Origin: Ranitomeya imitator
Taxonomy: Eukaryota
Direction of reading: 5' to 3'
Assembly (NCBI RefSeq): GCF_032444005.1
Contig: NC_091284.1
Coordinates: 572,136,001-572,200,000 of the forward strand
Length of the DNA: 64,000 nt
Shown here: positions 18,926 through 25,285 of the stretch, piece after piece
Layout of the letters: each line of letters starts with the position of its first letter
Numbering within the stretch: the first letter of the stretch is position 1
Translations under genes and position numbers: made by a program
Notes under the pieces: generated by a model
Database searches by the model: none
Told to the model about the DNA's origin: nothing
The model's input: the letters and a program-made list of their open reading frames with translations, nothing else

Positions 18926-19940
18926 ATACCAGAAGACCCAGACTCATGGTAATATGTGGACAGAGCACTATACACTCAGCCACAGAAAAAAAAACACTCC
19001 AAAATAAGCATTATAAAATAGGAGCACAGGAGTGTTTAAAAATGTACAAAAATACTTTATTAGCACCTAAAATATTACATACTAATCACACCAAACAAGT
19101 GCAAAATGAGGACACACAGTAGTGGTTCTCTGCAGAAATGTATAATTACAGAAAGTTCATATACAGGTCAGAAAATTCTTTATGGTAAGGTCTACTATGT
19201 AAGTTTGTATCCCTTTAATTAAATACTGCCTCAAATAGGGAAAACACTACATAAATCTCCCATATCAAAAAGAATCATTGGTATCACTTCAGAGGTACAA
19301 ACACGAATGTGGAATAAAAGGTACTGTATATACTCGTTTGGAAGTGCATTTGAACAGCAAGGTGGATTGCTGTTGAGGGGAACTAGAGAAAAAAAAAAAT
19401 CTATAAATCTTCAGCATAGCGAGTGTGAGCGAGCTAAGTGTGACCAGAGCGTAAGTGTGGACAGCGGTAAGTGTGACTTGTGATTCAGTGAAGAGGTATT
19501 TGGAAAGCCTTTAACAAATACCTGTGTGAATTGGTGTGAGTTGCTGAATTGGGAGTAGCTATATTCATAAGGGGTTAACTTAGGGTGGGGGCTCATAGTT
19601 AAGGGTTTATAAGGGGCAGCTGTTTGGGGCTCAAGTCCTTTTTGGAAGTGCACTTGAACAGCAAGGTGGATTGCTGTTGAGGGGAACTAGAGAAAAAAAA
19701 ATCTATAAATCTTCAGCATAGCGAGTGTGAGCGAGCTGAGTGTGACCAGAGCGTAAGTGTGGACGGCGGTAAGTGTGACTTGTGATTCAGTGACTTTGGA
19801 GTCAGGGAGTTTCCAAGGGAGGAAGTACTGAATTGCTGTCTTTTTTTTTTTTTTTTTTTTTTTAATTAATACTTTGTATTTATTTTTTATTTATTTATTT
19901 TTTATTTAACTTTTCTGTCTGGTGCAATCCCCATTAGGAA

Positions 19941-20864
19941 ATGTGCTCCACGATTGTTAATGCCATCCAGTGCACATCTTGCCACATGTATGCAGTCCTT
20001 GAGCAGCCGATCGAGGGTGCATACTGCTGTGCGAGATGTGAGCACGTTGTGCATTTGGAAACCCAGATTCTGACTCTAAATGTGCAGCTGGCAACACTGA
20101 GATCCATTGACAATATGGAGAGGAGTCTTCTGCTCACGGAGCAGACGCTCTATGGGACAGATGAGGGGGGGATGGTAGGATGGAGCTGCAGGACGGTGAA
20201 GTAGCAAGCTGGATGACAGTTAGGAGGTGGGGTAGAGGGAAGAGTGCCAGGGAGGCTAGTCCTGATCTGGAACACCCCAATAAGTTTGCTAAGTTGGCAG
20301 ATGAGGGGGGTGCCAGTACAGGGGTAGCACTGCTGCAGCCAGGCATGTCCTCTGAAAGCCGGGGGAGTGACTGCTCCAGTAAGGAGGGAAATAGGAGAGC
20401 AGGGCAGGCCAGACAGGTGCTGGTAGTGGGGGACTCCATTATTAGGGGAACAGATAGGGCAATCTGTCACAAAGACAGGGATCTTCGAACGGTGTGCTGC
20501 CTACCTGGCGCTCGAGTCCGACACATCGCTGATCAAGTGGACAGATTACTGGGAGGGGCTGGTGAGGACACAGCGATCATGGTGCACATAGGCACAAATG
20601 ACAAAGTTAGAGGTATGTGGAAGGTCCTTAAAGATGATTTCAGGGAATTAGGCTGCAACGCCAGAGAGGCAACGGGAGATTAGGGAGGTTAATAAGTGGC
20701 TCAAGAATTGGTGTAGGAAGGAGGGGTTTGGGTTCCTGCAGAACTGGGCCGACTTCTCAGTTGGCTACAGGCTCTACGCTAGGGATGGACTGCACCTCAA
20801 TGGGGAAGGTGCAGCTGTGCTGGAGGAGAAAATAGCTAGAAGGTTGGAGGATTGTTTAAACTAG
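19941..20864 (+). pseudogene. CR1 ORF1: CxxC...CxxC zinc finger and SGNH esterase, frameshifted and internally deleted
   Basis: CTSC...CARC; VLVVGDSIIRG; VHIGTND; RDGLHLN; ends ...GAT TGT TTA AAC TAG. Confidence 0.88.
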
Positions 20865-23803
20865 GGATTCGGGGGGAGGGTATTCATTTCATAGGAGGGG
20901 AAGATAGTGCAGACAGAGACCTGGGCACAAATAAGGAAGTTGGGGGTGGTGGTGGCATGGGGGGTGGGGTTAGAACAGTTAATAATTTAAGAAAGAGTAG
21001 AGGTACAGAGAGGAACATCAAGTGCATGTATACTAATGGCAGAAGCCTCGCCAACAAAATGGACGAATTAGAACGAATGTTGTTGGAGCATAATTATGAC
21101 ATGGTGGGGATATCTGAAACGTGGCTGGATGAGAGCCATGACTGGGCTGTTAACTTGCATGGCTATAGTCTGTTCAGAAATGACCGTACAGATAAGCGAG
21201 GGGGTGGGGTGTGTCTATATGTAAAATTGTCCTTAAAACCCATCCGGCGTGATAATATAGGTGAATTTAATGAAAATGTAGAATCCCTGTGGGTGGAGAT
21301 AAGGGGAGGGGGAAAAAATAATAAATTACTGATAGAGGTTTGTTATAAATCTCCAAAAATAATGGAAGCAATGGAGAATATCCTCGTAAAGCAAATAGAT
21401 GAAGCTGCGACTCAAGGAGAAGTCATTATTATGGGGGACTTCAACTACCCTGAAATAGATTGGGGAACAGAAACCTGCAGTTCCAGCAAAGGTAATCGGT
21501 TTTTGACAACTATGAGAGACAATTACCTTTCACAACTGGTTCAGGACCCAACAAGAAGGGGGGCACTGCTAGACCTAATATTAACCAACAGGCCAGACCG
21601 CATAGCAAATATAAGGGTTGGGGGTTACTTGGGAAATAGCGATCACAAAATAATAAGTTTTCATGTATCCTTTAAAAAGATGTGTAATAGAGTGGTTACA
21701 AGGACACTAAACTTCAGGAGGGCAAATTTCCAACGGATGAGAGAGGATCTTGGTGCAATTAAATGGGATGATATCCTGAGACACAAAAATACACAAAGAA
21801 AATGGGAGACGTTTATTAACATCCTGGATAGGACCTGTGCACAGTATATGCCGTATGGGAATAAACATACTAGGAATAGGAGGAAACCAATATGGCTAAA
21901 TAGAGCTGTAAGGGGCGCAATAAGTGACAAAAAGAAAGCATTTAGAGAATTAAAGGCAGTAGGTAGTGAGGAGGCATTAAATAAATACAAAAAATTAAAT
22001 AAATTGTGTAAAAAGCAAATCAAGGCAGCAAAGATTGAGACAGAGAGACTTATTGCCAGAGAGAGTAAAAATAATCCCAAAATATTCTTTAACTACATAA
22101 ATAGTAAGAAACTAAAAAATGATAGTGTTGGCCCCCTTAAAAATAGTCTGGGTGAAATGGTGGATGAGGATGAGGAAAAAGCCAATATGCTAAATGACTT
22201 TTTTTCATCAGTATTTACACAAGAAAATCCCATGGCAGACAAAATGTCTAGTGCTAAAAATTCCCCATTAAATGTCACCTGCTTAACCCAGCAGGAAGTA
22301 TGTTAGCGTCTAAAAATCACTAAAATTGACAAATCTCCGGGCCCAGATGGGATACACACTCGAGTACTGCAGGATTTAAGTACAGTCATTGATAGACCAT
22401 TATTTTTAATCTTTAAAGACTCCATAATAACAGGGTCTGTACCACAGGACTGGCGTATAGCAAATGTGGTGCCAATATTCAAAAAGGGGACAAAAACTGA
22501 ACTCGGAAATTATAGGCCAGTAAGCTTAACCTCTACTGTGGGTAAAATCCTGGAGGGCATTCTAAGGGATGCTATACTGGAGTATCTGAAGAGGAATAAC
22601 CTCATGACCCAGTATCAGCACGGGTTTACTAGGGACCGTTCATGTCAGACTAATTTGATCAGTTTCTATGAAGAGGTAAGTTCCGGACTGGACCAAAGGA
22701 ACCCAGTAGATGTAGTGTATATGGACTTTTCAAAAGCTTTTGATACGGTGCCACACAAAAGGTTGATACATAAAATGAGAATAATGGGGATAGGGGAAAA
22801 TATGTGTAAGTGGGTTGAGAGCTGGCTCAGGGATAGGAAACAAAGGGTGGTTATTAATGGAGCACACTCGGACTGGGTAGCGGTTAGCAGTGGGGTACCA
22901 CAGGGGTCAGTATTGGGCCCTCTTCTTTTTAACATATTTATTAATGACCTTGTAGGGGGCATTCAGAGTAGAATTTCAATATTTGCAGATGACCCTAAAC
23001 TCTGCAGGGTAATCAATCCAGAGGAGGACAATTTTATATTACAGGATGATTTATGTAAACTAGAAGCTTGGGCTGATAAATGGCAAATGAGCTTTAATGG
23101 GGATAAATGTAAGGTCATGCACTTGGGTAGAAGTAATAAGATGTATAATTATGTGCTTAATTCTAAAACTCTGGGCAAAACCGTCAATGAAAAAGACCTG
23201 GGTGTATGGGTGGATGACAAACTCATATTCAGGGGCCTGTGTCAGGCAGCTGCTACAAAGGCAAATAAAATAATGGGATGCATTAAAAGAGGCATAGATG
23301 CTCATGAGGAGAACATAATTTTACCTCTATACAAGTCACTAGTTCGACCACATTTAGAATACTGGGCACAGTTCTGGTCTCCGGTGTATAAGAAAGACAT
23401 AGCTGAACTGGAGCGGGTGCAGAGAAGAGCGACCAAGGTTATTAGAGGACTGGGGGGTCTGCAATACCAAGATAGGTTATTACACTTGGGGCTATTTAGT
23501 TTGGAAAAACAAAGACTAAGGGGTGATCTTATGTTAATGTATAGATATATGAGGGGACAGTACAAAGGCCTTTCTGATGATCTTTTTAATCATAGACCTG
23601 AAACAGGGACAAGGGGGCATCCTCTGCGTTTGGAGGAAAAAAGGTTTAAGCATAATAACAGACGCGGATTCTTTACTGTAAGAGCAGTGAGACTATGGAA
23701 CTGTCTGCCGTATGATGTTGTAATGAGTGATTCATTACTTAAATTTAAGAGGGGACTGGATACCTTTCTGGAAAAGTGTAATGTTACAGGGTATATACAC
23801 TAG
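20855..23803 (+). pseudogene. CR1 ORF2: apurinic endonuclease and reverse transcriptase with one in-frame stop
   Basis: CMYTNGRSL, ISETWLD, MGDFN, SDH, KSPGPDG, YRPVSLTS, GVPQGSVLGP, FADD; ORFs 20852-22306 and 22466-23803 share a frame, separated by TAG at 22304-22306. Confidence 0.93.
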
Positions 23804-24016
23804 ATTCCTTGATAGGGCTTTGATCCAGGAACTAGTCTGATTGCCGTATATGTGGAGTCGGGAAGGAATTTTTTTCCCCAAGGTGGAGCTTACTCTTTGC
23901 CACATGGGGTGTTTTTGCCTTCCTCTGGATCAACATGTTAGGGCAAGTTAGGTTAGGCTATGGGTTGAACTAGATGGACTTATAGTCTTCCTTCAACCTT
24001 AACTATGTAACTATGT

Positions 24017-24410
24017 AAGCCAAGTTTTTCAGCACATTTTTTGTGCTGAAAACGCCCCCCTCAGCTTATACACTAGTCAATTGTCCCAGAAAACCGAGGG
24101 GGAGCAGTGGGTCACAGAGGAAGGAATCGGCTGTGGCAAAAGCCTGTGCCGCTGCTAAAGAGAAATTAATATTAATTTCTCTTATAGCGCGCACAGTGAC
24201 ACTCGCAGCCGCCGGCTTCCAGAAGACATCCTACTCACCCTCCAGCGTGCCCTCCCAGTATCTTGTTAGTCTCGGCGCCCTCGCATCATCTCGTTGGTTC
24301 TGGTTTTCAGAAGCTCTTCCTGTGCTGGGCAATCACATGACACCGCTCATTAAGGTAATGAATATGCATGCGTGTCCACTTTCATAGGTGTGGAGGGAAT
24401 ATTCATTACC
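24017..24410 (+). mobile_element. remnant of a Tc2/pogo-like non-autonomous element
   Basis: AAGCCAAGTTTTTCAGCACATTTTTTGTGCTGAAAA...CTCAGCTTATAC; outer TIR bases lie at 19324-19336, left of the CR1. Family assignment is from memory. Confidence 0.45.
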
Positions 24411-24414
24411 TTAA

Positions 24415-25123
24415 CCCCTTCCCGACCTGTGACGCCACGTGGGCGTCATGAAAGTCGGTGCTAATCCGACCTGTGACGCCTATGTGGCGTCATGGTAGGA
24501 TCGTATCCCTGCAGATCGGGTGAAAGGGTTAACTAATTTCACCCGACCTGCAGGGACCTTTCACCCGACCTTTGCCCCCCACCTCTGTGGCTATGATCAC
24601 TCTGATTGGCTGTTGAAAATGACATTACACTTTCAATCAGAGCAATCGTAATATTTCACCAATGAAAATTGGTTAAATATTACAATCCAGCCATGGCCGA
24701 TGCTGCAATATCATTGGCCATGGCTGGAGACCACGATCTGCCTCTGCCTCTGTCCTGTCCGTCCTGTCCTCTACCCCCCCCCCCCCCCTCCGTCCTCCAG
24801 TCCGCTCTCCCAGTGCTCCGATCCCACCCCCTCATACTTGCCGACCTCCGGTGTCCGTCCGTCTTCTGCATGGGCGCGGCCATCTTCCAAAATGGTGGGC
24901 GCATGTGCGCCCGCCGAATCTGCCGGTAGATTCATTTTGATCACTGTGATAGATCATATCACAGTGATCAAAATAAAAAAAATAGTAAATAACCCCCCCT
25001 TTATCACCCCCATAGGTAGGGAACATAATAAAATAAAGAAAATATATTTATTTTTATTTTTCCACTAGGGTTAGGGTTAGAACTAGGGTTAGGGTTAGAA
25101 CTAGGGTTAGAGTTAGAATTAGG
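24415..25123. mobile_element. piggyBac-like element left part ending in TTAGGG-like repeats
   Basis: TTAA|CCCCTTCCCGACC; 24830-25065 matches the core of the composite MITEs; (TTAGGG/TTAGAA)n at 25066-25123. Confidence 0.65.
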
Positions 25124-25285
25124 CTATGTGCGGATTGGCCGCTGCAGATTCGTAGCAGTTTTCCATCACGTTTACACATGGAAGTTCATTCTATGTTCTC
25201 CGTAGTACACGCCTGCGCAATCTTGCCTTGCGCAGGCGTGTACTACGGAGGACATTGAATGAACTTCAATCCAATATTGCGGCCA

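Follow-up and report, generated by a model that had tools for sequence, protein, structure and literature searches.

A candidate programmed −1 frameshift site at the ORF1/ORF2 junction of CR1-type retrotransposons, seen from a decayed copy in Ranitomeya imitator

The DNA analyzed here, called the window throughout, is a stretch of 64,000 nucleotides of Ranitomeya imitator (contig NC_091284.1, positions 572,136,001 to 572,200,000 of the forward strand; coordinates below count from its first letter). It contains a near full-length long interspersed nuclear element (LINE) composed of an esterase open reading frame 1 (ORF1), an endonuclease-reverse transcriptase (RT) ORF2, a 3′ hairpin and 8-base tail repeats. 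This work concerns the junction of the two ORFs, a candidate site of programmed −1 ribosomal frameshifting. The element has the following features.

19941–20864, + strand: ORF1, with a zinc-finger-like N-terminus and an SGNH/GDSL esterase, broken in this copy (Pfam PF13472, homologs, intact sister copies)
20855–20861, + strand: slippery heptamer U_UUA_AAC in the ORF1 phase (94/96 family loci; TTA and AAC in 13/13 lineages)
20862–20864, + strand: ORF1 stop adjoining the heptamer, TAG here and TGA in the turtle-like lineage (sequence and lineage comparison)
20872–20876, + strand: G-box, +11 to +15 from the heptamer end, within the G-run 20871–20876; candidate stimulatory element (lineage profile)
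20861–21016, + strand: open −1-frame linker from the shift site to the endonuclease, of lineage-variable length (endonuclease Asn at codon 39–90)
20957–20959, + strand: first AUG past the ORF1 stop, in the ORF2 frame (GGC-ATG-G); family-specific and not in sister family B
21017–21646, + strand: apurinic/apyrimidinic endonuclease (APE)-type domain, first strand IKCMYTN, Asn codon 21035–21037 (PF03372, profile match)
22481–23152, + strand: RT in the frame of the endonuclease (PF00078), with the ORF2 end at 23801–23803
23804–24019, + strand: 3′ untranslated region (UTR) with a terminal hairpin (stem 23962–23969 / 23992–23999) and 8-base tail repeats ACTATGTA

CR1 elements end in a 3′ hairpin and an 8-base tail repeat instead of poly(A), and the window element combines such an end with APE endonuclease and RT domains and the esterase motifs GDS, GxND and DGxH; on this architecture, and from general knowledge of the group, we take it to be a CR1 element. 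The layout of an esterase ORF1 and an APE/RT ORF2 is that by which CR1-group elements are defined (PMC13343379). The ORF2 frame matches Exo_endo_phos (E 4e-17) and, downstream, RVT_1 (E 9e-34), while PF13472 on the last ORF1 piece reaches E 0.001, which lies under the curated cut-off, although the homologs do carry this domain. The closest named ORF1 homologs are from frogs, and an ORF1 tree places the window family with frog, shark and lizard records and a fish-type pair apart. The 5.96 Gb genome holds 1109 junction candidates and about 18,000 esterase candidates, and protein searches of it recovered almost exclusively the window's family. The window copy is a dead member of this large frog-like CR1 family: two lesions disrupt its ORF1, namely a deletion near 20660 and the loss of one base from a G-run at 20165, its ORF2 is interrupted by a private in-frame stop (22304–22306), whereas intact sister copies have an ORF1 of 327 amino acids ending C-L-N-stop. 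Additionally, a 5′ UTR segment of about 150 bases is duplicated in the window (19339–19492 and 19640–19792, 300 bases apart), and the doubling recurs in 12 of the 31 family loci holding the probe, which makes a tandem 5′ monomer a trait of the family. Beyond the element, a short array of GGGTTA and GGGTTAGAACTA (25060–25125) resembles interstitial telomeric sequence.

At the junction, ORF1 ends GAT TGT TTA AAC TAG (20850–20864), and the letters confirm the preliminary description of this locus, which had placed TTTAAAC at 20855–20861 directly before the stop. ORF2 lies in the −1 frame relative to ORF1, and, as was also described, this frame runs open into the endonuclease; it opens at 20840 (KVGGLFKLGIRG...), continues for 488 codons through CMYTNGRSL and contains the Exo_endo_phos match. 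The stop is followed by GGGGGGAGGG at 20871–20880; C20870 is private to the window copy and is G in the family, so that the family run is G7 from +9. The heptamer alone is no rarer than chance, since TTTAAAC occurs 23 times in the window against 18.5 +/- 5.3 in shuffled sequences; what is not chance in it is its position, phase and conservation. Within the family (105 loci examined, a few fetched in duplicate), 94 of the 96 loci spanning the junction retain both heptamer and stop, and 92 retain the AUG at 20957; such retention says little, because the copies are mostly 93–98% alike.

A wider comparison came from a metagenome scan with an internal ORF1 motif as query, so that its 49 loci were not picked by the heptamer; host labels of these lineages derive from named neighbours and general knowledge. 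The ORF1 C-terminus is matched by 32 of the 49, of which 10 end before the stop and one (L079) is truncated, and among the remaining 21 the ORF1 end reads T/G-TTAAAC in 17; two others read TTTAAAT with the stop lost (L051) and TATAAAC (L069), and the last two, the fish-type loci L065 and L071, lack the heptamer. On the ORF1 tree this fish-type pair stands apart, and long branches divide the heptamer-bearing loci into groups that are bird-like, turtle-like, invertebrate-like and from frogs. The codons TTA and AAC, whose pooled usage is 0.17 and 0.40, are invariant in 13 of 13 lineages; the corresponding joint probability of 1e-15.7 presumes independence and overstates the case, and a fairer control is given by the endonuclease, in which only 2 of 34 invariant residues retain one codon over eight of these lineages. 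Of 18 loci, 3 do not extend far enough to be scored for the endonuclease frame; in 12 of the other 15 the endonuclease follows in the −1 frame. Of the features that the preliminary description had singled out for comparison, the phase of the heptamer is conserved and the −1 frame between heptamer and endonuclease is open. The only recurrent variant is G_UUA_AAC, seen in L034 and in 13 of 20 loci of another family of this genome (family C), and equine arteritis virus is known to tolerate GUU at the first slip codon (PMC3542737).

The protein record points the same way. ORF1 ends in L-N in 26 of 46 homologs, from frogs, shark, turtle and other records, and these tails have two lengths, 26 or 32 amino acids after DGxH; the other 20 comprise two of equal length ending L-K or L-V, three fish-type proteins with other ends and 15 that are partial, chimeric or without the motif. 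Nine residues occur directly before L-N (C, Y, T, L, F, I, G, A and H); all have a U-ending codon, and none is among the five amino acids that lack one. Longer proteins checked for natural in-frame ORF1-ORF2 fusions contained none, which is weak evidence.

Two older families of the same genome, B and C, were seeded from a motif search and collected by DNA similarity; the search itself gave 21 matches against 26 with a control pattern, and thus no enrichment by count. Of the 29 loci aligned for family B, 19 read TTTAAACTAG, and 13 of the 20 of family C read GTTAAACTAG. One family B copy (L190:3250-3345) carries a nested amniote-type CR1 3′ end with ATTCTATG repeats, which implies at least one further CR1 lineage in the genome. 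The viral contigs searched held no relatives of the element, and five loci in prokaryote-genome contigs included no esterase-CR1 junction. LINE sequences also stand in records under prokaryotic names, namely a shark-like CR1 ORF1 in a record named Pseudomonas SGNH hydrolase (P0023) and endonuclease ORFs in three metagenome-assembled genome contigs (L155, L156, L157), probably as eukaryotic contamination. A different arrangement was observed in loci without the heptamer (L071:1741, L157 at about 1520, L155/L156), where the endonuclease is in frame with the upstream ORF behind UGA-C. The contexts are TGA CTG in L071 and L065, TGA CTA in L157 and TGA CAA in L155/L156, the in-frame endonuclease having been shown for L071 and L155-L157 only. 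UGA followed by C is a leaky-stop context, and readthrough may take the place of frameshifting in such heptamer-less lineages.

Unlike the heptamer, an AUG for ORF2 is not conserved across lineages. In an invertebrate-like clade (L037, L038, L040) no in-frame AUG precedes the first conserved Asn of the endonuclease, and the first Met of L038 and L040 lies 14 codons beyond that Asn. In the family B linker (24 of 30 loci aligned), ATG occurs in at most 2 of 20–24 copies at any codon column, and in other lineages the first in-frame AUG stands 2, 11–38, 56, 74 or 92 nt past the stop. A profile of the endonuclease aligns both with the L1 endonuclease and with exonuclease III, the latter from its first residue on; as the first strand aligns with the first residues of exonuclease III, a start beyond that strand would truncate the fold.

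Downstream of the heptamer, an ungapped profile of 15 lineages contains two conserved blocks, namely the heptamer with its stop and the G-box, in which G occupies +11 to +15 in 15, 14, 14, 14 and 12 of the 15 lineages. Two of these positions, +11 and +14, fall on the wobble base of ORF2 codons, and with one representative for each of eight deep lineages 34 of the 40 G-box bases are G, a value equalled in none of 20,000 slid controls. The spacer from the heptamer is fixed at 10 nt, within the 9–11 nt expected for the protein-stimulated type of frameshifting. The preliminary description had suggested a G-quadruplex as stimulator, and this part did not hold: neither the window copy (20862–21050) nor any of 56 GGAATT-type loci has the four-tract pattern, it occurs in 25 of 43 GGGATT-type loci (neither count deduplicated) where it starts at +3, on the stop codon, and the distal G-tracts, 80–110 nt away, are not common to other lineages, so that the shared feature is the single G-run at +11 to +15. 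Folding of the region downstream of the heptamer, proposed there as a check, likewise gave weak local structure and supported neither a G-quadruplex nor a hairpin stimulator, the proximal bases being unpaired. Local folding supported no stem-loop 5–9 nt downstream, pseudoknots being outside the model, and the metagenome lineages compared at the ORF1 end contained no C-rich stretch nearby with which the G-run could pair. In the window copy the junction pairs best with the 3′ UTR (−26.6 kcal/mol, partly from the private C20870); such pairing showed no clear specificity and is not counted as support. As a separate observation, the 12 bases just upstream of the heptamer (20839–20850) could pair with the terminal hairpin, whose 3′ arm (23989–24000) is their complement.

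Based on these comparisons, we regard as real a deeply conserved signal of apparent recoding type at the CR1 ORF1/ORF2 junction, and we propose that this junction is quite probably a programmed −1 frameshift site giving an esterase-endonuclease-RT fusion. The sequence-level support is that ORF1 ends in X_UUA_AAC-stop, that ORF2 is the −1 frame, that the linker is open and that no start codon is conserved. Most ribosomes would terminate at UAG and release the ORF1 protein (ORF1p), while a minority would slip back one base on U_UUA_AAC, read CUA for UAG, and pass through a linker of 33–84 codons into the endonuclease and RT. The predicted product would have about 1300 residues (about 327 + 980), with C-L-N then L-G-I-G-G across the junction. 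A low-rate fusion would hold the polymerase scarce relative to ORF1p, in the manner of Gag-Pol. More tentatively, the adjacent stop and the G-box at +11 might together cause the pause. A protein bound to the G-box, or a distant partner of it, would be a more probable agent than local RNA folding. A bolder extension, possible but on balance doubtful, is that esterase-bearing CR1 elements from invertebrates to birds share an ancient two-part signal, the heptamer with its stop and the G-box 11 bases on, in which a protein binding the G-run, ORF1p or a host factor, switches on a Gag-Pol-like ORF1-ORF2 fusion; this would be protein-stimulated frameshifting in a retrotransposon of the chromosomes. 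Thus the fusion suggested in the preliminary description gains from the codons, the phase, the open −1 frame and the non-conserved AUG, and loses its G-quadruplex stimulator.

Several observations weigh against frameshifting at this junction. The endonuclease is out of frame in 3 of the 15 loci scored, which are probably decayed. The lineages share common ancestry and 7 of 15 are bird-like, so that joint probabilities overstate their independence, and families B and C, seeded by a heptamer-containing pattern, are not independent tests of the heptamer. No canonical stimulator was identified, local fold, G-quadruplex and 3′ pairing all being unsupported: stretches of 74–134 nt fold locally with only −8.7 to −15 kcal/mol and leave the first 13–16 nt unpaired, and duplexes of junctions with their cognate 3′ ends have z-scores of −2.0, −0.5, +0.8 and +1.4, no better than non-cognate ones (to −3.6), the 3′ ends of families B and C being assigned from two rearranged copies each. 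The G-run also varies in length, with G6, G8 or G9 instead of G7 in 23 of 77 scored family copies (19 of 96 unscored), and an altered length breaks the fusion frame and spares an ORF2 begun at the AUG at 20957. Spread of a G6 subfamily with a broken fusion frame was considered and rejected. G6 is scattered on the tree (8 changes against a shuffled mean of 8.6, on a poorly resolved tree that includes non-homologous flanks) and occurs on several haplotype backgrounds, G7 being commoner in large ones; the G8 run of ORF1, which must be intact in a source element, is equally unstable, with the modal length in 17 of 35 copies. Therefore, it is simpler to suppose that dead copies have slipped repeatedly, although a G6 source element of minor importance may exist. 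Slippage of the polymerase within the G-run was likewise rejected, since the stop precedes the run and cannot be bypassed in this way.

The start codons also count on the opposing side, in that the AUG at 20957 is the first past the stop in the window family, lies in frame and has favourable flanking bases, G at both −3 and +4 (92 of 96 loci), and four bird-like lineages (L031, L033, L036, L042) have an AUG 2 nt past the stop. ORF2 could then be made mainly by termination-reinitiation or by scanning to an in-frame AUG, with the heptamer a relic or a minor route, and the overlapping stop-start of SART1 (PMC3708506) is a precedent. We consider this unlikely as a general account: the in-frame AUG before the endonuclease is missing in the three lineages named above and in family B, its position is unconserved, bird-like sisters read GTG, TCG or TGG in place of the AUG, and reinitiation at an AUG leaves the fixed TTA and AAC codons, the fixed phase and the G-box unexplained. 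The preliminary description had itself allowed for reinitiation at 20957; the caveat stands for the window's family, where such reinitiation could coexist with frameshifting, and loses weight across lineages, where the AUG is not kept. Less probable by a clear step is AUG-independent reinitiation of the kind thought to start L1 ORF2 (PMC5009743), in which the heptamer, stop and G-box would retain and restart the ribosome rather than let it slip. It fits the missing AUGs and the absent stimulatory fold, yet it gives no reason for an exact in-phase X_XXY_YYZ with U or G only at the first base, nor for an open −1 frame beginning at the heptamer itself. Least credible of all is to read the motif as a 3′ splice acceptor (CTAG|G), or as a mere C-terminal L-N conserved at the protein level with inherited codons: YAG does stand at the stop in most lineages and L-N is kept in the protein, but an upstream polypyrimidine tract is absent, the turtle-like lineage has TGA, 32 of the 34 invariant residues that serve as control have scrambled codons, and no joint ends occurred at the junction in four sequence runs, which is weak evidence, the contigs thinning or breaking there.

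Programmed frameshifting at the CR1 junction would resemble several known systems in part. In the nidovirus ORF1a/1b junction, the heptamer is identical (U_UUA_AAC in infectious bronchitis virus), G_UU at the first codon is tolerated in equine arteritis virus (PMC5009743, PMC3542737), the upstream ORF ends close by and the polymerase lies in the −1 frame; unlike it, CR1 has no detected pseudoknot or stem-loop at 5–9 nt, has a G-box at +11 and is a chromosomal LINE. Among APE-type non-long-terminal-repeat elements, a −1 frameshift is stated as required for ORF2 of Dictyostelium TRE5-A and TRE3-A (PMC5911963), which differ from CR1 in belonging to the L1 clade, in amoebae, and in having a different ORF1. 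For the G-box, the nearest likeness is the −2/−1 site in nsp2 of the porcine virus PRRSV, with a 10-nt spacer followed by a brief low-complexity motif that is unstructured (PMC4937337) and stimulation by nsp1beta and a poly(C)-binding protein (PMC4937337; PMC5009743); its motif is C-rich and its slip site is another; the likeness is one of geometry only. L1 and SART1 share with CR1 a bicistronic LINE RNA and low ORF2 output, whereas their ORFs are separate or stop-start joined and the two of CR1 meet at a slippery site, where they overlap in −1 phase. Retroviral and long-terminal-repeat Gag-Pol similarly fuses a structural RNA-binding ORF at low rate to enzymes (chicken ALV-E, PMC11835228), although CR1 encodes no protease to cut the fusion and replicates, as a LINE, by target-primed reverse transcription.

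The literature search found no report of CR1 frameshifting, the CR1 papers of 1997–2001, a possible place of earlier mention, being outside its reach; 'CR1' is absent from the first 300,000 characters of the 2016 frameshifting review (PMC5009743), and a 2026 survey of the CR1 group does not mention the overlap, translation or start codon. How LINE ORF2 is translated is a standing question, for which the worked cases, L1 and SART1, point to reinitiation, and in most vertebrates the dominant retrotransposons belong to the CR1 group (PMC13343379). That the G-box is fixed while local folding is weak suggests a stimulator of an unusual kind. If the frameshift proposed here is true, a signal of 25 bases would set the levels of ORF1 and ORF2, ORF2 models that begin at the first Met would be mis-annotated or truncated in the endonuclease, and the active CR1 enzyme would be an ORF1-ORF2 fusion.

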